From an uncultured Planctomycetota bacterium (GTDB lineage Bacteria; Planctomycetota; Planctomycetia; Isosphaerales; Isosphaeraceae), in the NCBI GenBank assembly GCA_963737655.1, contig CAVTTN010000002.1:992001-1056000 (forward strand): DNA of 64,000 nt, given 5' to 3'. Of this stretch, positions 869-11,976 are shown in pieces (the stretch's first letter is position 1; each line of letters begins with the position of its first letter). The notes beneath the pieces were generated by a model. It had not been told where the DNA came from. It saw nothing but the letters and a program-made list of their open reading frames with translations, and did not search any database. The position numbers were made by a program, and so were the translations under genes.

Positions 869-957
869 GGAGAGGTGGCTGAGTGGTCGAAAGCGACGGT
901 TTGCTAAACCGTTAGGGTGGGAAACCGCCCTCGGGGGTTCGAATCCCCCCCTCTCCG
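869..957 (+). tRNA. tRNA-Ser (anticodon GCT), CCA not encoded
   Basis: GGAGAGG/CCTCTCC acceptor stem with G discriminator, D arm TGGCTGAGTGGTCGAAAGC, anticodon arm ACGGT-TTGCTAA-ACCGT, long variable arm, T arm GGGGG-TTCGAAT-CCCCC. Confidence 0.97.
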
Positions 958-1262: not shown

Positions 1263-3101
1263 GTGAAACGGTTGGAGTCGGCCGATTCGGATGGTCGATG
1301 GAGTAGATCGTGGAAGACAGGAGAGATGGGTCGGGACCGTCTTGCGGGTAAGGCGGGACCAAGGAGGAGAGCCGTGGACCCCACGATCGCGAAACCTCTG
1401 CGCAGATGGGCGAGCGTCGCGTTCGCCCTGGCCCTCGGGGGGCGTGCGAGCCTGGCCGCCGAGGCGCCGCCGGTGCCGAATCCGGCCCCGGGTGCGGCCC
1501 AGGCCGTTCGGCCCCCGGCACCGGCCGCTCCGGCGACGTCGGCCCCGGTCCCCGGCCCCTCGTCCGGCTCGTCGATCCCCGAGTCGCCGCCGACTCTGCT
1601 GGATCCGAGGAGCCAGCCGATCGACCTGAACACGACGTTGAGGCTCGCCGGGGTGCAGAACCCCGACTTGCTCCTGGCCCGGCAACGGGTCGTCGAGGCC
1701 GCCGCGCTCCGGCAACTGGCCGCCGCCCAGATCCTGCCGACGATCAACCTCGGGACCAACTACGACAGCCATACCGGCGTGTTGCAGCAGTCCAACGGCA
1801 ATATCTTGACCGTGAACCGAAGCGCCCTGTATGTCGGGGCCGGTGCCAACGCGGTCGCGGCCGGAACCGTGAACATCCCCGGCGTGGTCCTGTCCGGGAA
1901 CATCGCCGAGGGGGTCTATGCGTTCCTCGGGGCCCGTCAGGTGGTCCGGGAGCGGGAATTCGCGAGCCTGGCGGTGCGGAACCAGGTGTTCCTGAGGGCC
2001 GCCTCGGCCTATAGCGAGCTGATCCGGGCCGAGGGCAGGCGGGCGATCGCCGTCCAGACGCGGGATGAATCCAAGGAAGTGGCCCGGCTCACGGCCGATT
2101 ACGCCTCGCAGGGCCTGGGCCGGCAAGCCGACGCCGACCGGGCCGCCACCGAGCTCGCCCAGCGTGAGGCGAACGTCCAGCAGGCCGAGGGGGAAGTCCT
2201 GACGACCTCCGCGCGGCTCGCGGCGGTCCTGAACCTCGATCCCTCGATCCGCCTGCATCCCACGGACGCCTTCGCCGTGCCGATGCCGATCATCCCCGAC
2301 CCCACGCCCCTGGCCGAGCTCGTCGCGGTCGCCCTCTTGAGGCGGCCGGAGCTGGGCGAGAGGCGGGCCGTGATCCGCGAGGCGCTCCTGGCCCTGGAAG
2401 GGTCGAAGGTCCTGCCGTTCTCGCCGACGGTGCTCGTCGGGTTCAGCTCCGGCGGCTTCGGGGGCGGCTCGAACCTGGTCAAGCCGGTCTTCGGCGGGTT
2501 CGGCTATCGGTCGGACTTCGACACCGTGGCCTACTGGTCGATCCGCAACATGGGCGTGGGCAACCTCGCGTTGATCCGCGTGGCCGACGCGAACCTGAAA
2601 TCGACCCGGTTCCAGGAGATCGGGGTCTTGAACCTCGTCCGCTCCGAGGTGGCCGAGGCGTACGCGAAGACCCATGCCCGGTTCGCCCAGATCGGGACGA
2701 CGGAGATGGCCGTGCGGTCGGGCCTGAACGCGTTCCGCGAGGACTACGACCGGATCAAGCTCCGGGCCCAGAGGGACGTCCTGCCGATCGAGCTGCTGGA
2801 CAGCCTGAGGCTGCTGGCCCGGTCTCGGGCGGCGTACCTCGACGCGATCGTGGATTTCAACATCGCCGAGTTCGAGCTGTTCGTGGCGATGGGCCAGCCC
2901 CCGGCGGACGCCCTGGCCCGCCCGGTCCCGGCCGAAGGGATCGCGCCGAGCAACATCCCGGGCCCGGTATCCCCCCCCCCGGCCGGCCCGAATCCCGCGG
3001 CCCCCGCGCCGTTCGCGGCGCCTGGCGGGAACACCCTCGGAGGCACCCCGGCGCGATCCGGCGAGGTCCGTCGCGCATCGATGGCAACGATCCGTCGCTG
3101 A
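1263..3101 (+). CDS. TolC-family outer-membrane efflux protein (true start may be at 1327 or later)
   Basis: Signal-like segment and Pro/Ala-rich linker, then IDLNTTLRLAGVQNPDLLLARQRV, ALLRRPEL, and C-terminal ELLDSLRLLARSRAAYLDAIVDFNIAEFELFVAMG, all typical of OEP repeats. Confidence 0.9.
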   Translation: MKRLESADSDGRWSRSWKTGEMGRDRLAGKAGPRRRAVDPTIAKPLRRWASVAFALALGGRASLAAEAPPVPNPAPGAAQAVRPPAPAAPATSAPVPGPSSGSSIPESPPTLLDPRSQPIDLNTTLRLAGVQNPDLLLARQRVVEAAALRQLAAAQILPTINLGTNYDSHTGVLQQSNGNILTVNRSALYVGAGANAVAAGTVNIPGVVLSGNIAEGVYAFLGARQVVREREFASLAVRNQVFLRAASAYSELIRAEGRRAIAVQTRDESKEVARLTADYASQGLGRQADADRAATELAQREANVQQAEGEVLTTSARLAAVLNLDPSIRLHPTDAFAVPMPIIPDPTPLAELVAVALLRRPELGERRAVIREALLALEGSKVLPFSPTVLVGFSSGGFGGGSNLVKPVFGGFGYRSDFDTVAYWSIRNMGVGNLALIRVADANLKSTRFQEIGVLNLVRSEVAEAYAKTHARFAQIGTTEMAVRSGLNAFREDYDRIKLRAQRDVLPIELLDSLRLLARSRAAYLDAIVDFNIAEFELFVAMGQPPADALARPVPAEGIAPSNIPGPVSPPPAGPNPAAPAPFAAPGGNTLGGTPARSGEVRRASMATIRR

Positions 3102-3151: not shown

Positions 3152-4882
3152 ATGAGCGCGACCCGCCGTCCGGGGGGATGGCCGAGGTATGCCCGGCGAC
3201 TGTCTCGATCGCTCTCGGGCGTCCTGACCGTCGCCTCGCTGGCCGGGTGCATGGTCCATCGGGCGAGCCCCCTGGGGCCGCCCGGCCCGGAGGTCGGCAC
3301 GGCCGCCCGGGACGCGGAGCCGGGCGACCCCGCCCGCGACGTGGACGTCAGGCCGACCGCCGCCCAGGCCCCGGCCCCGCCGCCTCCCGAGGCCCGACCG
3401 GCCGGCCCGCCCCCGGCCGAGGCGGTCCCCGGCCCCTCGGCCCCGCAGCCGGTCCCCCCGGCCCCGAGGACCGACCCGCCCGATACCCCCGCCGTCCCCC
3501 CCCCGGCGATGGAATACCCGATCGACCTGTCCACCGCCCTGCGGCTGGCCGACGCCGAGAACCCGAGGATCGCCGAGGCGAGGACGCAAATCCTCTCGGC
3601 CCTGGCGTTGCAGACCGGGGCCCGCGCCCTGCTCCTGCCGACCCTCAACGCGGGAACCAACTATCACGGCCACATCGGCAACCTCCAGAGATCCTCGGGC
3701 CGGATTCTGAGCCTCTCGGAGCAGTCGCTGTATGTCGGCGGCGGTGCCCGGACGCTCGCGGCCGAATCACTGGGCATCCCCGCCGTGAACATCACCAGCC
3801 CGATCACCGAGGCCCTGTTCGAGCCCCTGGCGGCCCGGCAGAACCTCGACGGGGCGCGGTTCCGCGTGGCCGCCACGACCAACGCCGTCCTCCTGGAAGT
3901 GGCGCTGCTCCAGGTCGATCTGATCGCCGCCGACGCGGCGTTGCAGATGCTCCGCCGGTCGGAATCCGAGGCCCGGGAGATCGCCCGGACGGTCGTCGAG
4001 TACGCCGAAGCGGGCCGGGGCCGGCAGGCCGACGCCGACCGGGCCGAGACCGACTTGCGGCTCCTCCGCTCCGAGGTCCAGAGGGCCGAGGAAGAGGTGG
4101 CCGTGGCGTCCGCCCGGCTCTGCCGGAGGCTCAACCTCGACCCGGCCATCCGCCTCCGCCCCCTGGCCGGGCCTCTGGAGCCGTTCGAGCTCGTCGATCC
4201 CCACCGATCGACCGAGGAGCTCCTGAGCATCGCCCTGAACCGCCGGCCCGAGATGGGCGCGGCCGGGGCCGCCATCGGAGTGGCCGAGACGAGGTATCGT
4301 GAGGAGAGGGTCCGGCCGTTCCTCCCCCTGTTCTGGATGGGCGTCAGCGGAGGCGGATTCGGGGGCGGGAGCAACCTCGTCCAGCCCCTGCTCGGCAATT
4401 TCGGCGGCCGGACCGATTTCGACGTCCGGGCGATCTGGACGTTGCAGAACCTCGGGCTGGGGAACCTCTCCCAGCAGAAGAGGCGGAGGGCCATGGTCGG
4501 CCAGGCCCAGGCCGAGCAGTCGCGGACGGTCAACACGATCCGCCGGGAAGTCGCCCAGGCCCAGGCCGTGGCGATCGCCCAGGTCCAGCCGATCGAGCAG
4601 GCCCGCCGCGGCCTGAGGCTGGCCGAGGAAGGGTTCCGGGACGACCTGACCCGGACTCGCAACGCCCAGGGCCGTCCCCTGGAAGTCCTCAACAGCCTGA
4701 GCCTGGTGACCCGCGCGAGGCTGGACCTGGTCCGCGCCGTCACGGCGTTGAATCAGGCGCAACTCGCCCTGTTCGTGTCGCTCGGCTCGCCCCCTCCGGT
4801 CGAAGGGCCGCCGGGCCCGCCTCCGGGAGGCCCGCCTCCGGTCTCCACCCCGTTGCATTCGCCGATCGTCTCGGGGGGCTGA
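3152..4882 (+). CDS. TolC-family outer-membrane efflux lipoprotein (paralogue of the upstream gene)
   Basis: Lipobox LAGC; IDLSTALRLADAENPRIAEAR, ALNRRPEM and GGFGGGSNLV shared with the upstream TolC. Confidence 0.9.
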   Translation: MSATRRPGGWPRYARRLSRSLSGVLTVASLAGCMVHRASPLGPPGPEVGTAARDAEPGDPARDVDVRPTAAQAPAPPPPEARPAGPPPAEAVPGPSAPQPVPPAPRTDPPDTPAVPPPAMEYPIDLSTALRLADAENPRIAEARTQILSALALQTGARALLLPTLNAGTNYHGHIGNLQRSSGRILSLSEQSLYVGGGARTLAAESLGIPAVNITSPITEALFEPLAARQNLDGARFRVAATTNAVLLEVALLQVDLIAADAALQMLRRSESEAREIARTVVEYAEAGRGRQADADRAETDLRLLRSEVQRAEEEVAVASARLCRRLNLDPAIRLRPLAGPLEPFELVDPHRSTEELLSIALNRRPEMGAAGAAIGVAETRYREERVRPFLPLFWMGVSGGGFGGGSNLVQPLLGNFGGRTDFDVRAIWTLQNLGLGNLSQQKRRRAMVGQAQAEQSRTVNTIRREVAQAQAVAIAQVQPIEQARRGLRLAEEGFRDDLTRTRNAQGRPLEVLNSLSLVTRARLDLVRAVTALNQAQLALFVSLGSPPPVEGPPGPPPGGPPPVSTPLHSPIVSGG

Positions 4883-4982: not shown

Positions 4983-5696
4983 TCACTTCCTCGCCGGGCC
5001 GACCCTCAGGATCGGGAACGCGGCGATGAGCTGGTGGCCGAACGGGTCGATGATCTCGTACTCGGTGTTGGTGAGGAAGTCGGTGAGGGTCAGGTTGTAC
5101 GAGAAGCGGCCCTGGGCGTCGGTGGCGAGGGCCTTGCCGTTGAAGGCGTAGTTGCCGGTTCCGTTGTCGGTGAAGACGATCGAGCCGGGGGTGGTCTGGC
5201 CCTCGATCGTGATGTGATCCAAGCGTGTGATCCCGCCGGAGTTGTGGATTCCGGTATGCTGGACCCCTTGCCCGGGGGCCAGGGCGATCTTGACCCTCAA
5301 GGGGATGTCGGCCGTCAGCGGCTGTTCGTGGCGGACGAGGTACTGGGCGTCGCCGTGGCCGATGAAGCCGTTGTGGTTGAAGTCGTAACTGGGGTTGTAG
5401 AAGCCGCTGCCCTTGGTGCTCAGGTAGGCGACGCTGAACGTCCTGAGGTCGGCCAGGGTGAACTCGCCGTTGGGTCCGGTGCCGGGCGACGAGGCGGGCA
5501 CGGTGGGGACGGCGTGGGTGTGGACGTGGGCGCGGGCCTGGTGTTTCGGCGCGGAGGCGTCGGGGGCCGCCGAGACGGGCGGGGCGACCTCGGCGGAGGC
5601 CGCCGCGGCGGGCGGGGTGATCGCCGAGGCGCTCAGGGCCAGCCGGCCTTCCAGGGCTTCGAGGCCGGGGCGCGGCCGGGCGAATCGTGACCTCAT
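4983..5696 (-). CDS. Secreted-type protein with planctomycete 'LE..R.LL' N-terminal motif and a dockerin/EF-hand-like loop
   Basis: MRSRFARPRPGLEALEGRLALS; YNPSYDFNHNGFIGHGD; Ig-like beta-rich C-terminus; GGAGG upstream of the ATG. Confidence 0.75.
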   Translation of the reverse strand: MRSRFARPRPGLEALEGRLALSASAITPPAAAASAEVAPPVSAAPDASAPKHQARAHVHTHAVPTVPASSPGTGPNGEFTLADLRTFSVAYLSTKGSGFYNPSYDFNHNGFIGHGDAQYLVRHEQPLTADIPLRVKIALAPGQGVQHTGIHNSGGITRLDHITIEGQTTPGSIVFTDNGTGNYAFNGKALATDAQGRFSYNLTLTDFLTNTEYEIIDPFGHQLIAAFPILRVGPARK

Positions 5697-5791
5697 GGCG
5701 ACCTCCGTGTAAGACCCCGGCGCGGCTCGAGGCGCCGGGGCTCTACCAATTTGGGGCACGGATCGCGGCCCGTCCAACCGTGGGCGGGCGA

Positions 5792-7222
5792 TCAATGGGC
5801 CGGCTTTGCCGATTCTCCGCCCTGGGCCTGTTCCACCTCCACCGCCATGTTGTCGGCCAGGGCGCCGTTGTATTTGATGACGACCTCGTCCTCGGCCCCC
5901 AGGCCCGAGGCGATCTCGGCGGCCACGCCGTTATCCAGGGCCACGACGACCGGGGTCTTGTGGAGCTTGCCGTCGCGGACCACGTAGACGAACCCCTTGC
6001 CCTCGCTGCCTTCGAACAGGGCCGAGGACGGGACCGACAGGTTCTTCGACGCCGGCTCCAGGACGATCGTCACCCCGCCGTACATCCCCTCGCGCAAGAG
6101 GTTGTCCGAGTTGGGCAGGTCGATCTCGGTCCTCATGGTCCGATTGCCGGGGTCCTGCGAGTAGGAGAAGCGGGAGACCGTCCCCTTGAACTCGCGGCCG
6201 GGGAGGCTGTCGATGTGGACGATGGCCGGGTCGCCCACGTCGACCAGGGGGACGTCGGGATCGGGGACCTGGACGACCACGCGCACCTTGTCGATCCGGG
6301 CCACCGAGAGGATCGGCTTCTCGTTGCCGTCGGAGGCCGAGCGGATGAAGGCGCCGGGGTGGAAGTTGCGGAGGGTCACCACGCCGTCGTAGGGCGAGAC
6401 GATCTTGGTGTACCCGACCAGGACCTTGGCCTTGTCCAGGGCGGCCTGGGCGACCTCGACGTTGGACTTGGCGCCGACGAGGTCGGCCTGGGCCTGCTCG
6501 ACCTTGGCCTGGGCCTCGGCCACCGAGGCGTCGGCCGAGAGGACTCCGGCCTCGGCGGCGTGATAGTCGGCGATCGAGGCGTCGTACTTGTCCTGCTCCT
6601 CGTCCTGGAGTTGCTCCTCGACGGCGTGCCGGAGGACCAGCCCCTTGATCCTCTCGAACTGCTTCTTGCGATATTCTCGGGAGGACTTGCGCCTCTCCAG
6701 CTCGCTCCGGGCGGTGGCGACGTTGGCGACGGCGGTCTTCTTCATGGCGTCGGCGGTGCGGACGTGGGCCTCGGCCTGGGTGACGGCGGCCTGGGCCTGA
6801 TCGACGGCGGCCTTGGCCTGGTCCTGGGCCTTGACCAGCTCGGGGTCCTCGATCTCGGCGAGCTCCTGGTGGGCCTTGACCGGGGAGCCGATGTCCACGC
6901 TCTGGGACTTCATGTAGCCGGAGACCTTGGCATAGAGGTCCGCGGCCTCGAAGGCGCGGACGTCTCCGGGCTGCTGGACCACCCGCTCGATGCCGTGGGG
7001 AGTCGGCCGAGAGACGGTGACCTTGGTGACGCCGGTGTGCGACCCTTCGCCGGCCTCGGCGGACTTGCGGCTCTTGCTGGCCACGCCGAAATACCAGGCC
7101 GCCCCGGCCCCTCCGGCCAGGATGGCCAGGCCGAGGAACAACCAGATCCCCGAACCCTTCTTCTTCGCCGTCACCGTCGTTCGGGGCCGTTCGGCCGCCG
7201 GAGCAATTGCCTGGTCCGCCAC
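5792..7222 (-). CDS. RND efflux periplasmic adaptor (membrane fusion protein)
   Basis: N-terminal TM, LYAKVSGY, long coiled coil, YTKIVSPYDGVVTLRN, RTMRTEIDLPN, LREGMYG. Start placed at GTG 7222; the ORF is open to 7291. Confidence 0.92.
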   Translation of the reverse strand: MADQAIAPAAERPRTTVTAKKKGSGIWLFLGLAILAGGAGAAWYFGVASKSRKSAEAGEGSHTGVTKVTVSRPTPHGIERVVQQPGDVRAFEAADLYAKVSGYMKSQSVDIGSPVKAHQELAEIEDPELVKAQDQAKAAVDQAQAAVTQAEAHVRTADAMKKTAVANVATARSELERRKSSREYRKKQFERIKGLVLRHAVEEQLQDEEQDKYDASIADYHAAEAGVLSADASVAEAQAKVEQAQADLVGAKSNVEVAQAALDKAKVLVGYTKIVSPYDGVVTLRNFHPGAFIRSASDGNEKPILSVARIDKVRVVVQVPDPDVPLVDVGDPAIVHIDSLPGREFKGTVSRFSYSQDPGNRTMRTEIDLPNSDNLLREGMYGGVTIVLEPASKNLSVPSSALFEGSEGKGFVYVVRDGKLHKTPVVVALDNGVAAEIASGLGAEDEVVIKYNGALADNMAVEVEQAQGGESAKPAH

Positions 7223-7378
7223 GAGAGTACCCTCATTCCGAAGAATGGTCCGTTCCGACCCGTTCCCTGAAGGCCCCGGTCGCGCCCTCACGAGAGGGAG
7301 GAGGAGCCAGACGGCATGGACGCGAGGGCCCGATTGGCTCGGGGTCCTCCGCGGCGAGATCGTGGGCGAGCGCCCGTC

Positions 7379-7726
7379 TCAGCAACGCCGATGAAGGCGG
7401 GGGGGGTCGCTGGGGACGTGGGCCGGGTCTCCGGGCCTCGCCAGGAGGCCGTGAGACCCGTCGGAAAGCAGCAAGGGCCGGGCCCATCGGCCCGGTCCCT
7501 GGAGAGCATCCTCGTCGCCGGTCTCCTCCTCGGAGATCAATGCCGAGAAACGGAGGCGGAGCGGCCGGCCGCCCAGGCCGGCGACACGGCGGCCGAACGA
7601 CGGTTCCCCCTGGCGGACCGCCGAGGCGGGGCGAGGGCCGTCGGCCCGGACGCCGACCCGGGGCGGGGCCGAGGCGAGCACGGCCGCCACGACCAGGCAC
7701 CAGGCGATCGTCGGGGACCTCCTCAT
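7379..7726 (-). CDS. Small leader-like ORF (about 115 aa) upstream of the MFP gene, ending PPRLHRRC
   Basis: MRRSPTIAWCLVVAAVLASA signal-like N-terminus, acidic patch EEETGDED, C-terminal RC-stop. Mirrors the ORF at 7973-8314. Confidence 0.55.
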   Translation of the reverse strand: MRRSPTIAWCLVVAAVLASAPPRVGVRADGPRPASAVRQGEPSFGRRVAGLGGRPLRLRFSALISEEETGDEDALQGPGRWARPLLLSDGSHGLLARPGDPAHVPSDPPRLHRRC

Positions 7727-7972
7727 CGGCATGACCGGACTCCTGACCGACTCGCGCCGCCCCGGCATTCCGGGGCTTCGGGCCGGGCTTCGTCGCCGAT
7801 CCGGTCGCGAGGGGCCGGATCGCCGCTTGACCTTTCCAGTCTACTCGGCTCCAATGGAGGAGATCAAGACGACCTGGGGCGCCCGGCCTTCCCAGAGCCT
7901 TCCGATCGCCCGGTCGGACGTCCCTGCCGGCCCCGGTGCCCGGCCCTCTCGGCCTCGATCCTTCGGGTTTCG

Positions 7973-8314
7973 ATGCGAACCGTCGCCCTGCCCATCCTGC
8001 TCGCGGTCCTCATCGCCCTGCCGATGTCGGTCCTGATCCGCCAGGCGGACGCCAGGGGGACGGCGGCCCCTCGACCCGGGGCGTGGACCGAGGGTCAGTC
8101 CAAGCCGGTGAAGAGGCCGAGGCATCGCGGGACCTCCCCGCCGAGGGCCACGGCCCTGGTCTCCCGGGCGGCGATCGGCCGGAGGGCCGACGGCCCGTCG
8201 TTCGCGTCGCCCCGGCTGCGGAGGCCGTTCCCCGCCTCGGCCCGACGTTCGATCGCCTCGGCTCGCGAGGCGAGGCCCTCTCGCCTTTCCCCCCCCACCC
8301 CTCTCCGGTGCTAG
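7973..8314 (+). CDS. Small leader-like ORF (113 aa) upstream of the RND permease, ending PPTPLRC
   Basis: MRTVALPILLAVLIALPMSVLI signal-like N-terminus, Arg/Pro-rich body, C-terminal LRC-stop about 130 nt before the RND ATG. Confidence 0.55.
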   Translation: MRTVALPILLAVLIALPMSVLIRQADARGTAAPRPGAWTEGQSKPVKRPRHRGTSPPRATALVSRAAIGRRADGPSFASPRLRRPFPASARRSIASAREARPSRLSPPTPLRC

Positions 8315-8445
8315 GGCGCTCGAATCGCCATCGCGGCCGGGCCCGTTGCGCCCGCCGCGCCCCCGTCGCGCCCCGCGACGGCCCCGAGTTTCCGCGTGCG
8401 CTTCCAGACCGCATCCAGCCCGAGGCCGGTGAGGACTCCCCGTCC

Positions 8446-11400
8446 ATGAATGGGTTAATCCGCGCATCCCTGAAGAACCCGTACGCCGTGACGGTCATGG
8501 CCCTGACCATCATCGCCGTCGGCTACGTCTGCGCCACGAGCTTGCCGATCGACATCCTCCCCGTGTTCAAGAGCCCGGCCGTCCAGGCCCTGACGTTCTA
8601 CGGCGGGATGCCCGCCACCAGCGTCGAGAACGACATCACCAACCGGATGGAGCGCTGGACCGGCCAGGCCGCCGGGACCCAGCGCCAGGAGTCGCGGTCG
8701 ATCACCGGCGCGAGCATCGTCCGCAACTACTTCTTCGGCGACGTCGACCCCAACGGGGCGTTGACCCAGGTCAATTCGCTGGCGCTCTCGACGTTGCCGA
8801 ACCTGCCGCCGGGCACCCTGCCGCCGGTCGTCCTGCCGTTCGACCCGACGAGCACCACGCCGGTGGCCCTGGTGGCCCTGGACAGCCAGACCGGCGGTCC
8901 CACCGGCAAGGGCTGGGGCGAGTCGATCCTCTACGACGTCGGCCGCTACGAGGTCCGCAACATGATCGCGGGCATCCAGGGCGCCGTCGCCCCGGTCGTC
9001 TACGGCGGCAAGGTCCGCGCCGTGATGCTCTACCTCGATCGCGACAAGATGCAGGCCCGAGGCCTCTCCGCCCTGGACGTGATGAGGGCCGTCGACGACT
9101 ACAACCTCTTCCTCCCGACCGGCGACGCCAAGTTCGGCACCACCGACTACGCGCTGGACTCCAACTCGATGTACGCCGACGTCAAGGACATGGGCGGCAT
9201 CCCCCTGAGGACCAAGCAGGGCAATTCGGCGTACGTCCGCGACGTGGCCACGCCCGAGGACGCCAGCTTCATCCAGACCAACGTGGTCCGCGTCAACGGC
9301 GCCCGCCAGGTGTACATCCCGGTGTTCCGCCAGCTGGGGGCGAGCACCCTGAAGGTCGTCAACACGCTGAAGGACCAGCTCCCCGGGATGGAGGCCCGGC
9401 TGACCCGGCCGGACATCAAGCTCAAGACCGTGATGGACCAGTCGATCTACGTCCGCAAGTCGATCGAGAGCCTCGTCCAGGAAGGTCTCCTCGGCGCGGC
9501 GCTGTGCTCGCTGGTCATCTTGCTGTTCCTGGGCGACTGGAAGATGACGGTGATCGCGGTCCTGACCCTGCCGTTGTCGGTGCTCGGGGCGCTGATCGGC
9601 CTGTACGCCACGGGCAACTCGATCAACGTGATGACGCTGGCCGGGCTGTCGCTGGCCATCGGGCCGATGGTCGATAGCGCGATCATCTGCCTGGAGAACA
9701 CCCACCGCCACCTCGGCCTCGGGGCGAAGCCCGAGGAAGCGGCGTTCCTCGGGGCGAGCGAGGTGGCCCTGCCCGAGCTCGTGGCCATGCTCTGCACGCT
9801 GCTGGTGCTCTCCCCCCTGGCGCTGATGCCGGGCCTCGGCCAGTTCCTGTTCCGGCCGATGGCCCTGGCGGTCACCTTCGCCATGGTCTCCTCGTACCTG
9901 CTGTCGCGGACGTTCGTGCCGGCGCGTTCGGCGGGCTGGCTGAAGGCCCACGCCCACCCGGCCGTCGGCCCCGGCCACGAGGTCCCCGGCCACCGCGAGC
10001 CCGAGGAGGCGGAGACCTTCAAGATCAACGGCAACGGCAACAATCAGGGCTACGACCACGACCACGCCTCCCGACCCGGGCTCGTGCAACGCGCCTTCGC
10101 CTGGTGGGAGGCCCGGATCGAGGACGGCATCCGCTGGTATACCCGGCTCCTGAACCGCATCCTCAACGCCCGGATCTTCGTCGTCCTGACGGCCGTGGCG
10201 CTGCTGGCGGTGGTCCTCCTGGGCTTCGGCTCGCAGCTCCGCCGCGAGTTCTTCCCCGAGGTCGATGCCGGCGCCTTCGAGATGTACGTCCGGGCCCCGT
10301 CCGGGACGCGGATCGAGGACACCGAGGCCCGGATCGCCAAGGTCGAGGAGTTCCTCGTCAACACCATCGACAAGGCGTCTCTGCCGCCCGAAGAGTACGA
10401 GCGCCGCAAGAAGATCCGCGAGGACGTCAAGCTCGGCAAGGCGGCCCCCGCCGAGGCGGAGAAGGACGGGGAAGGGCACGGCGAGAAGGCCGAGTCGGAC
10501 CTCCAGCTCTACATCTCCGAGATCGGCGTGACGCCCGACTGGTCGGCCGCCTACACGCCCAACGCCGGCCCGATGGACTCGGTCGTCCGCGTCCAGCTCG
10601 AAGGGGAGCGGAAGCACTCGGCCCAGGAGTATGTGGACATGCTCCGCCGAGGGTTCGCCAACGACCCGAGCTTCGGCGACCTGGAATTCTCGTTCGACGC
10701 CGGGGGGATGATCCGAGGCGCCATGAACGAGGGCAAGGCCACCCCGATCAACATCCGGGTGACCGGCAAGAACCAGCAGAAGGCCTACGACGTGGCCGCC
10801 GCGATCAAGGCCAAGGTCCAGCCGATCGACGGCGTGGTCGACGCCCGGATCATCCAGAGGTTGAACTATCCCGAGTACATCATCAACGTCGATCGGGCCA
10901 AGGCCGCCGAGCTCGGCCTGAACCAGGAAGACGTGATGAGGACCATCGTGGCCGCCTCGAACTCGTCGATCCAGTTCAACAAGAAGAACTTCTGGATCGA
11001 CCCGATCAGCCACAACCAGTACTTCGTCGGCGTCTCCTACCGGCCCAAGGACATCAAGTCGATCGAGACCCTGCTGGACATCCCGATCACCGGCCGGAGC
11101 ACCAGCAACCTGGACAGCGCGACGCGGACGGTCCCGCTGCGGAACATCGTCAAGATCGACCGGACGCAGGTGCCGACCGAGGTCGTCCACTACAACGTCC
11201 AGCCGACGATCGAGCTGACGATGGGCGTCCAGGGCCGCGACCTCGGCCACGTGGCGGCCGACGTCGAGCAGGCGATCTACGAGTTCGGCGAGCGCCAGGC
11301 CGACGGCACCTGGGTCCCCTTCGAGAGGAAGTCCGGAGGCGCCGAGAAGGCGCTCATGAAGGGCACGAAGATCGTCCTCTCCGGCGAGTACGAGCGGATG

Positions 11401-11976
11401 CAGAACACGTTCCGCGACCTGGGTTTCGGCCTGGTCGGGGCGTCCCTGCTGATCTACTTCCTGATGGTCTCGCTGTTCAAGTCGTACGTCACGCCGCTGG
11501 TCATCCTGTTCGCCGTGCCGATCGGCCTGGTGGGCGTGGTGACGCTCCTGTTCGTGACGGGGACGGCGATCAGCGTGCAGTCGCTGCTCGGGGTGATCTT
11601 CATGGTGGGCATCGTCGTGTCCAACACGGTGCTGCTGGTGGACTTCGCCCAGAACCTCAGGACCGAGGAAGGGCTCACGCCCGACGCGGCGATCCGCAAG
11701 GCGGCGTCGGTGCGGGTCCGCCCGGTGGTGATGACGGCCCTGGCCGCGTTCTTCGCGCTGATCCCGATGGCCCTGGGCGTCGAGCGCGGCAGCGAGGCCA
11801 ACGCCCCCCTGGGCCGGGCGGTCATCGGCGGCCTCGTGGCCGGCCTGGTGACGACCCTGCTGGTCGTGCCGTCGCTGTATTCGCTCGTGGTCAAGGACGC
11901 GCCGGGAGCCGGCCCGAGGCGCGAGCCCCGGCCGGAGACCGAGCCCGAGCCGACGCCCGATGCCGGTTGGGCCTGA
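8446..11976 (+). CDS. RND efflux transporter permease (AcrB/CzcA/CusA superfamily)
   Basis: MNGLIRASLKNP; LPIDILP; GPMVDSAIICLEN (TM4); RVRPVVMTALAAFFALIPMALG; APLGRAVIGG; His-rich cytoplasmic insertion. Confidence 0.95.
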   Translation: MNGLIRASLKNPYAVTVMALTIIAVGYVCATSLPIDILPVFKSPAVQALTFYGGMPATSVENDITNRMERWTGQAAGTQRQESRSITGASIVRNYFFGDVDPNGALTQVNSLALSTLPNLPPGTLPPVVLPFDPTSTTPVALVALDSQTGGPTGKGWGESILYDVGRYEVRNMIAGIQGAVAPVVYGGKVRAVMLYLDRDKMQARGLSALDVMRAVDDYNLFLPTGDAKFGTTDYALDSNSMYADVKDMGGIPLRTKQGNSAYVRDVATPEDASFIQTNVVRVNGARQVYIPVFRQLGASTLKVVNTLKDQLPGMEARLTRPDIKLKTVMDQSIYVRKSIESLVQEGLLGAALCSLVILLFLGDWKMTVIAVLTLPLSVLGALIGLYATGNSINVMTLAGLSLAIGPMVDSAIICLENTHRHLGLGAKPEEAAFLGASEVALPELVAMLCTLLVLSPLALMPGLGQFLFRPMALAVTFAMVSSYLLSRTFVPARSAGWLKAHAHPAVGPGHEVPGHREPEEAETFKINGNGNNQGYDHDHASRPGLVQRAFAWWEARIEDGIRWYTRLLNRILNARIFVVLTAVALLAVVLLGFGSQLRREFFPEVDAGAFEMYVRAPSGTRIEDTEARIAKVEEFLVNTIDKASLPPEEYERRKKIREDVKLGKAAPAEAEKDGEGHGEKAESDLQLYISEIGVTPDWSAAYTPNAGPMDSVVRVQLEGERKHSAQEYVDMLRRGFANDPSFGDLEFSFDAGGMIRGAMNEGKATPINIRVTGKNQQKAYDVAAAIKAKVQPIDGVVDARIIQRLNYPEYIINVDRAKAAELGLNQEDVMRTIVAASNSSIQFNKKNFWIDPISHNQYFVGVSYRPKDIKSIETLLDIPITGRSTSNLDSATRTVPLRNIVKIDRTQVPTEVVHYNVQPTIELTMGVQGRDLGHVAADVEQAIYEFGERQADGTWVPFERKSGGAEKALMKGTKIVLSGEYERMQNTFRDLGFGLVGASLLIYFLMVSLFKSYVTPLVILFAVPIGLVGVVTLLFVTGTAISVQSLLGVIFMVGIVVSNTVLLVDFAQNLRTEEGLTPDAAIRKAASVRVRPVVMTALAAFFALIPMALGVERGSEANAPLGRAVIGGLVAGLVTTLLVVPSLYSLVVKDAPGAGPRREPRPETEPEPTPDAGWA

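Follow-up and report, generated by a model that had tools for sequence, protein, structure and literature searches.

The window, a stretch of 64,000 nucleotides (nt) from an uncultured Planctomycetota bacterium of the family Isosphaeraceae (assembly GCA_963737655.1, contig CAVTTN010000002.1, positions 992,001 to 1,056,000, forward strand), carries two short open reading frames (ORFs) that lie back to back, each ahead of a gene for a component of an RND efflux pump. ORF+ precedes the permease gene and ORF- the periplasmic adaptor gene, and we describe both as members of a family of candidate leader peptides whose tail, typically Leu-Arg-Cys (LRC), ends flush with the stop codon. The features that carry the argument are the following (window positions; aa, amino acids).

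7973..8314, plus strand: RND-side leader ORF+, 113 aa, with a hydrophobic signal-like head, a basic disordered body and a PLRC-TAG tail
8300..8314, plus strand: conserved tail Pro-Leu-Arg-Cys-stop of ORF+, a candidate arrest-at-termination motif
8315..8445, plus strand: RND-side spacer, 131 nt, C-rich, a candidate Rho loading/termination zone
8446..11976, plus strand: RND permease (ACR_tran), 1176 aa, under all NCBIfam subfamily cut-offs; closest solved chain MdtB
7379..7732, minus strand: adaptor-side leader ORF-, with a hydrophobic head, an acidic patch and an LHRRC-TGA tail
7508..7531, minus strand: acidic patch EEETGDED of ORF- (residues 68-75), ending 42 residues before the C-terminus
7379..7393, minus strand: variant tail His-Arg-Arg-Cys-stop of ORF-; orthologues here end RPLRC, IRLRC, RRLRC and RHLRC
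7223..7378, minus strand: adaptor-side spacer, 156 nt, with an excess of C over G in its first ~100 nt, weaker overall (skew 0.09)
5792..7222, minus strand: RND periplasmic adaptor (HlyD/CusB), TIGR01730 above cut-off

The ORF+ protein begins MRTVALPILLAVLIALP and ends SPPTPLRC*, its TAG stop lying 131 nt before the permease ATG at 8446. The ORF- protein begins MPMRRSPTIAWCLVVAAVLASA and ends DPPRLHRRC* at a TGA stop (end at 7379); it starts at 7732 (117 aa) or at a second ATG at 7726 (115 aa), and its stop is 156 nt from the adaptor GTG at 7222, which has a GAGGG site 7 nt upstream. Both heads combine a basic n-region with a predicted helix and reach hydropathies of 3.0 and 2.8 over 12 residues. 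These values bear out an initial annotation of this DNA, which had noticed two divergent ORFs of similar size with hydrophobic heads, each stopping about 130-160 nt before an efflux gene. Its shared RC-stop tail holds in that both ORFs end in RC, but the family tail is (P/R/C)-L-R-C-stop, of which HRRC is a variant.

Beyond the tail, ORF+ and ORF- have no detectable similarity to each other (z 1.9). ORF+ is strongly basic, with 20 K/R against 4 D/E in its last 90 residues, and only ORF- has an acidic patch. Origin of such back-to-back pairs by inverted duplication is not supported generally, as similarity beyond the tail was found in one of six pairs (L207, z 7.4; L and G numbers are our labels for loci and genomes). 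AlphaFold, run on ORF+ with a 77-row alignment, predicts helices at residues 5-15 and 18-21 only and no folded domain (predicted template modelling score 0.23). Neither window ORF matches Pfam or NCBIfam at E up to 0.1, nor do four homologues at E up to 1, and the leaders and their spacers have no Rfam match. A protein identical to ORF- is present among the gene-caller representatives (P0002).

Enrichment of the tail upstream of RND genes

ORFs were selected by a rule blind to the tail, which takes a hydrophobic segment 78-127 residues before the stop and a stop 60-350 nt upstream of an RND gene. Ahead of RND orthologues this yields 36 ORFs; Cys is the last residue in 34 of them, and 29 have the full LRC tail. 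Applied throughout the source genome (G000), this geometry selects 811 ORFs; because only five of these end in RC, the RC tails exceed chance, and all five are leader candidates, namely the two window ORFs and one each ahead of an adaptor/RND pair, an sbtA gene and a DUF1559 gene. Enrichment of the tail before efflux genes, which the initial annotation had named as a check, is therefore present.

Among 29 loci of RND homologues from relatives, 14 have an ORF ending in LRC, LLC or PRC 107-237 nt upstream, and all 14 lie within the RND family of the window (22 loci, two of them without upstream DNA). A larger set of 151 loci, reduced to 132 by removal of 10 duplicates and 9 loci with less than 700 nt upstream, has a leader directly ahead of the RND gene in 43 loci and none in 89. 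We also compared 60 PLRC-stop sites with 20 PLRC-TGG controls, taken from 150 listed of 483 pattern matches. Among the matches listed, an in-frame hydrophobic head stands at the right distance in 11 of the 60 sites and in none of the controls; a head in another frame occurs at 8 more PLRC-stop and 3 more PLRC-TGG sites.

A profile of 21 leaders finds 73 representatives at E up to 0.001, and with one more match 68 of 74 end in LRC, a count that is partly circular in that the profile includes the tail and some matches are query rows. Run on G000, the profile recovers two of the six local candidates and so cannot show absence. Word-indexed homologue searches with leader alignments gave no match at E up to 1 among 3854 candidates, and a further search gave one among 6102, because the family is too divergent for them. 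Gene callers do call leader ORFs as genes. Most members are found in Isosphaeraceae, and at least one in a metagenome-assembled genome of Pirellulales (L123).

Constraint on the peptide and on its end

The tails of 73 collected members, one of which was later discarded as a chance match, read LRC in 62, PRC in 4, RRC in 2 and MLC in 2, with LLC, FRC and WLC once each. Their Leu, Arg and Cys use many codons and the synonymous positions vary freely. The stop is TGA in 31, TAG in 27 and TAA in 15 of the 73, as against 73, 18 and 9% in the plus-strand genes of G000. Since synonymous codons vary and all three stops occur, the constraint falls on the peptide and on its ending at this point. The ratio of nonsynonymous to synonymous substitution rates (dN/dS) is 0.04 over the last four codons, compared with 0.58 over the 16 codons before them, 0.52 in the body and 0.42 in the signal; it was estimated from 15 non-overlapping pairs at 40% identity or more, a filter that biases the three higher values downward.

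The reading frame is likewise kept, with net indels of zero or a multiple of three in six of seven close pairs; the seventh has offsetting gaps and a net difference of two codons. Close pairs were used because distant ones misalign, so that DNA-level indels over all 15 pairs are uninformative (25 of 94 gaps are multiples of three). The tail is out of frame with the head in seven members, and in three of them the adjacent RND gene is also split, which points to sequencing indels. Conservation of tail and frame, both singled out for checking by the initial annotation, thus holds, and codon-level comparison indicates that both window ORFs are conserved protein-coding genes, not shadow frames.

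Tails of the CLRC or CPRC type, which place a CxxC at the C-terminus, account for 9 of the 73. The macrolide +X+ arrest motif was considered as an explanation of the tail and rejected, as it fits only the RLRC minority (15 of 73). At two loci with leader-like geometry the ORFs end in RPLCY-stop (L114, on the adaptor side) and IRLQV-stop (L224); either may reflect natural variation, decay of the copy or a sequencing error.

Distances fixed from the stop and a seemingly exchangeable body

The median distance between the first residue of the hydrophobic segment and the terminal Cys is 105 residues (10-90% range 100-114, n=65), and 115 in leaders of sbtA genes. An acidic patch is present in 73 of 150 distinct members and ends a median of 40 residues before the Cys (10-90% range 38-46). 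It occurs in 15 of 15 sbtA leaders, 7 of 17 adaptor leaders, 44 of 62 profile matches and 4 of 10 pattern matches, and in 3 of 46 RND-side leaders. Such constant distances to the stop would be understandable if the ribosome waited there with the chain still attached. A run of five Asp residues exerts a membrane-potential-dependent pull on a SecM-stalled chain, with a force peak at L+n of about 50 (n=5; 10.1101/310698), and the natural patches fall at this peak or a few residues short of it.

The body thus seems to be a replaceable module joined to a tail that the family shares. CxxC or CxxxC occurs in 19 of 150 members and His clusters in 12 of 150, and the window ORFs have neither a CxxC nor a His cluster. 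In one subfamily an internal RVCxW(P) motif follows the signal and the tail is often CLRC or CPRC (L009, L012, L015, L130, L141, L153, L167, L181, L192, L241 and L480); if any branch of the family senses metals or redox state, this one is the likeliest candidate.

Position in transcription units

The leader accompanies the head of the transcription unit. At about 46 loci where the adaptor gene precedes the RND gene (counted by eye, many with too little upstream DNA to judge), a leader stands ahead of the adaptor in 7 and between the two genes in none. Sixteen loci have divergent RND and adaptor genes; six of them carry both leaders, six the RND-side leader only and four neither, and one of the RND-side-only loci has the adaptor-side variant ending in RPLCY (L114). 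A sigma70-like site lies within 250 nt upstream of the leader in 49 of 63 cases, as against 5% in shuffles, and none was found within tail and spacer in 50 loci. This placement argues for action in cis. In the window, two sigma70-like sites overlap on opposite strands between the ORF starts, and orthologues of ORF+ carry good sigma70-like sites at the same position.

7838..7867, minus strand: sigma70-like site TTGATC-18-TAGACT ahead of ORF-, 8 of 12 matches, under a 9-of-12 threshold
7827..7855, plus strand: near-miss sigma70-like site TTGACC-17-TCCAAT ahead of ORF+, read by eye; fails both promoter scans

Spacer composition and structure

Leader spacers have a median length of 123 nt (82-333, n=50). 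Over the 110 nt before the RND ribosome-binding site (RBS), the C-G skew is 0.216 with a leader (n=43), compared with 0.060 without one (n=89) and 0.041 genome-wide (n=1109), and the bubble of C over G starts inside the last 80 nt of the leader ORF. G000 has a rho gene with a full TIGR00767 match (C2 812001-813248); a second Rho-like gene (C2 5188888-5190006, minus strand) falls under the TIGR00767 cut-off.

The initial annotation had proposed to check the spacers for RBS-occluding hairpins, and the folding results do not support them. No intrinsic terminator was found in the leader spacers, the RND spacer of the window is not more structured than shuffles, and the spacers as a set fold no better than shuffles (mean z -0.56). 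Pairing between stop region and RBS is not conserved (median 0.3 base pairs in 44 spacers). Placing a ribosome footprint at the stop opens the RBS by a median of 0.10 kcal/mol, against 0.36 kcal/mol for a footprint 45 nt upstream (p 0.38, n=40). A general RBS-hairpin switch was therefore rejected, and the sequence points to Rho-type termination instead. The footprint at the stop does open the RBS by more than 2 kcal/mol in 32% of 44 spacers, the RND side of the window included, and RNA around the RBS folds slightly more strongly where a leader precedes it (-9.6 against -7.9 kcal/mol).

A small hairpin between the Shine-Dalgarno sequence and the RND start codon recurs, in the window at 8430-8448 (GGAC...GTCC) and at L155, L160, L161, L185, L199, L204, L207 and L211, with the form GGTCC...GGACC in one subfamily. 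It is local and has no predicted coupling to the leader stop.

Downstream genes and neighbourhood

The six candidates of G000 comprise the two in the window and one each ahead of an AcrB-like pair, a member of a second RND subfamily and an sbtA gene, together with a doubtful one that overlaps a DUF1559 gene. Every downstream gene that could be identified codes for a membrane or exported protein. Homologues of sbtA (PF05982) have a leader at 15 of 22 loci, G000 included (L358-L379); the G000 sbtA leader (C2 3311677, minus strand; L093:2678-3025) is of the LRC type with a strong acidic patch. G018 has two sbtA genes in tandem, with a separate leader ahead of each. In the second RND subfamily a leader is present at 2 of 30 loci. 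Across G024 and G018, 6 of 78 [LF]RC-stop sites are leaders, three of them before adaptors, two before sbtA and one with no clear target. Thus the initial proposal that the leaders co-regulate a split efflux operon stands as regards placement at efflux genes, but not as a restriction to them, given the sbtA leaders and those of a secreted Gly/Met-repeat protein.

The latter belong to a PLRC subfamily with the body motif WKARPKIV, which heads tandem genes for large secreted Gly/Met-repeat proteins with one leader per copy (L289, L290, L311-L313, L269-L271 and L068); the Gly/Met-repeat protein has no Pfam family. G000 has 12 RND clusters, of which four CzcA-/CusA-like ones are without a leader and three of other types carry one. 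Leaders do precede an adaptor with a CzcA-like RND gene (GAIDFG) in G024 (L490) and a CzcB/IhpB-like adaptor (L489). The CzcA- and CusA-like labels are presumptive and rest on motifs, GAIDFG being typical of CzcA.

Some further loci deserve mention. A hydrophobic-headed ORF ending LLRFRC-stop (G000:C2 5612867, minus strand; L094:2368-2901) overlaps what may be the start of a DUF1559 prepilin-type gene and is a doubtful member. The RND gene behind the leader at G000:C2 7096277 (plus strand) is broken by stops or frameshifts in the assembly, and L096 (G028) and L110 (G005) hold tandem duplicates of the window-type RND gene.

Within the window, the efflux locus extends beyond adaptor and permease.

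4983..5795, minus strand: 270-aa conserved protein, downstream of the adaptor in many orthologous loci
1263-3101 and 3152-4882, plus strand: pair of TolC-like genes for outer-membrane efflux proteins, belonging to the same conserved locus

The locus, comprising the two TolC-like genes, the 270-aa protein, the adaptor and the RND gene, recurs in rearranged form in relatives. The 270-aa protein belongs to no Pfam or NCBIfam family and probably forms part of the efflux system here, and no RC-type leader lies ahead of the TolC-like genes. A tRNA-Ser(GCT) gene at 869-957 (plus strand) precedes the first TolC-like gene by about 300 nt, and the locus may sit at a tRNA integration site.

Relation to known leader peptides

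Several known systems share parts of this layout. TnaC of Escherichia coli is a short cytoplasmic peptide that senses free tryptophan. Its stall at translation termination blocks Rho-dependent termination in a long spacer (PMC9973294), and the present leaders are alike in what we propose for them, a termination stall with Rho termination in a long spacer. They differ from TnaC in being 100-130 aa long (113-117 aa in the window) with a signal-like head, and in using all three stop codons, and are therefore not tied to one release factor.

Stalling with a stop codon in the A site is already known for leaders that carry a signal and end in NSP-stop, NAP-stop or DGMK-stop (2024, PMC10987492). Like the present ones, those leaders have an N-terminal signal or transmembrane segment, a poorly conserved spacer of more than 30 residues and a C-terminal motif flush with the stop; six uA_LPPP leaders compared are 106-134 aa long, and in five of these the next gene follows after 69-164 nt, similar to the present leaders. 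Unlike them, those leaders head secA, secDF or yidC, whereas ours head RND, adaptor, sbtA and secreted-protein genes and end in LRC-stop. Descent from uA_LPPP by truncation was considered and set aside as coincidence, as PLRC occurs inside one supplement row and not in six others, and an in-frame LPP or PPP follows the stop in 5 of 70 cases.

Resemblance to CruR (DUF2946) lies in the position as first gene of the operon, the signal peptide, the poorly structured body, the fixed spacing to a C-terminal motif and the long spacer (162 nt in CruR) with a C>G bubble. In cruR of Bordetella pertussis such a bubble marked the Rho site (Roy et al. 2022, PMC9426467), Rho being the read-out of CruR. The window ORFs differ from it in having no CXXC and no Pfam or NCBIfam match, a RAPP-like motif occurs in 0 of 63 leaders, the proposed stall is at the stop codon rather than during elongation, and the targets are exporters and SbtA rather than copper uptake.

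Also known are the CutF-like leaders (among them CzcI, CopL, SilD and CusD; Ozturk et al. 2023, PMC9973294), which resemble the present family in being shorter than 150 aa, in having a signal and a same-strand gene within 1000 nt, and in standing upstream of OEP, ACR_tran and HlyD_D23 genes. Both window ORFs have a PP among their last 15 residues, as do only 19 of 150 family members, so that PP is not general in the family. Unlike CutF-like leaders, the family has no conserved Cys/His metal motif and no conserved RBS-masking stem-loop, and has a conserved terminal LRC; its spacer arrangement is closer to the CruR Rho site than to the CutF stem-loop. Planctomycetes go unmentioned in the main text of the CutF article, its large protein list lying outside this comparison. 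CzcI (PF28244) gave Atlas feature scores of 0.89-0.92 on only 68-77 of 256 shared features, and no match in the Pfam copy used, which may omit CzcI.

Judged by sequence, the family lacks the defining motifs of its known relatives, with no RAPP, no general CxxC or PP and no sec target. LRC has no occurrence in the main text of PMC10987492, nor in the available text of PMC12992588 and the LudP preprint. No description of the leader family was found in the literature searched, outside which lie the CutF protein list and bioRxiv supplements that could bear on this. The suggestion in the initial annotation of an undescribed planctomycete class of cis-placed leader ORFs with the layout of arrest peptides finds support in the sequences compared.

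Discussion

We propose that the ribosome is arrested at termination on LRC-stop and in this way shields a Rho site, and that export pull on the signal-tethered chain releases the arrest, a reading to which we give a probability of about 0.5. The signal-like head would pass the nascent chain to the Sec translocon, and the ribosome would halt before reading the stop codon, with Arg-Cys in its catalytic centre. While paused, it would mask the C-rich RNA predicted for Rho loading, such that transcription reaches the pump gene. Normal export would pull the chain and end the pause, upon which Rho would shorten the transcript; slow export or a weak membrane potential would lengthen the pause and raise pump expression. 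At other loci the bicarbonate-transporter genes would be adjusted to protein export in the same manner. The parts differ in strength. That the leaders are translated and act in cis is very probable, and arrest of the ribosome at the leader stop codon is likely. Rho is a somewhat favoured candidate for the read-out, and export force or membrane energy as the input must be called tentative.

A more speculative extension, which we regard as rather unlikely, takes the LRC-stop tail as a portable termination brake combined with different pulling or sensing bodies. Leaders with an acidic patch would then be natural gauges of membrane voltage, in which the D/E run lies at the translocon mouth and the potential pulls it through and ends the pause. 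A falling potential, caused by acid stress, uncouplers or weak acids, would turn on proton-driven pumps and the SbtA importer via Rho attenuation.

Several observations weigh against the proposed arrest, read-out or input. RND-side leaders, ORF+ included, are basic and mostly without the acidic patch, and therefore a single charge-pull input cannot cover the whole family. Where the patch exists it sits a few residues nearer the C-terminus than the experimental peak of the force; its role could instead be contact with the ribosome exit or cation binding. The body, with a dN/dS of about 0.5 and the subfamily motifs RVCxWP, KGRxR and VKALPSExEE, is not a pure spacer. The CruR signal peptide does not release its stall (PMC9426467), and so a signal alone is no proof of export sensing. 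The skew is modest, and weak on the adaptor side of the window; the sequences compared are kin and not independent, which overstates the p-values. The plus-strand promoter of the window is only a near-miss, and most close RND relatives (89 of 132) and 28 of 30 loci of the second RND subfamily are leaderless.

The same cis stall at the stop could have a soft metal or a thiol-reactive compound as its input, sensed through the terminal Cys or through Cys/His residues of the body, as in CutF and CruR, with the signal only exposing the sensor to the periplasm or clearing the peptide. The near-invariant Cys of the tail-blind set, the CLRC/CPRC tails and the RVCxWP subfamily would fit such an input, as would His-rich loops in the downstream RND, adaptor and SbtA proteins and the leaders ahead of a presumptive CzcA-like RND and a CzcB/IhpB-like adaptor. 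CutF-like leaders moreover precede genes of the same kinds (PMC9973294), and the nearest named Atlas clusters include CzcI and DUF2946 (0.89-0.92), though only as a lead. But CxxC motifs and His clusters are absent from both window ORFs and confined to a minority of the family, all four CzcA-/CusA-like RND clusters of G000 are leaderless, and sbtA is the best-conserved non-RND target. With the evidence on metals thus mixed, we consider this input rather unlikely. A stall with a translational read-out, in which the ribosome opens RNA structure over the downstream RBS as in SecM, MifM and CutF, draws on the slightly tighter RBS region behind leaders and the third of spacers that open appreciably; the near absence of stop/RBS pairing, the unexceptional folding, the footprint control and a spacer of about 120 nt make it quite unlikely.

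The ORFs might also encode stable small proteins, exported or anchored in the membrane, that bind a partner through their C-terminal LRC (a pump subunit, a protease, or a disulfide or lipid attachment), with no stall. A body dN/dS below 1, the subfamily motifs and their recognition by gene callers agree with this, and a free C-terminal Cys would likewise be conserved flush with the stop. However, a diffusible partner needs neither one copy per unit nor both copies in back-to-back loci, and the same tail stands ahead of unrelated targets (RND, adaptor, SbtA and the Gly/Met-repeat protein). The distances fixed from the stop and the C-rich spacer would also go unexplained, and no fold is predicted; we therefore hold this explanation to be unlikely. 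That the ORFs are shadow frames, or that a DNA or RNA motif reads LRC-stop by accident, has in its favour a GC content of 69%, at which long spurious ORFs are common, and the many sites that are not leader-like (41 of 60 PLRC-stop sites among the matches listed, and 72 of 78 [LF]RC-stop sites in two genomes). Against it, third positions vary while amino acids stay, dN/dS in the tail is 0.04, heads accompany 11 of 60 sites but none of 20 controls, and Rfam gives no match. Codon-level conservation refutes the shadow-frame explanation for the family, leaving it a very slight chance overall.

The family extends the arrest-leader design with a new terminal motif, LRC-stop, that tolerates any stop codon, and with unexpected targets, namely RND pumps, adaptors, SbtA-family bicarbonate transporters and a secreted Gly/Met-repeat protein. 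If the proposed arrest is true, it would represent a new way of blocking peptide release. The acidic patch, fixed about 40 residues from the end, offers a natural gene for testing whether membrane potential can be read through force on a nascent chain. The shared leader, finally, defines a regulon and with it a handle on unclassified pumps and on SbtA in heterotrophic planctomycetes.

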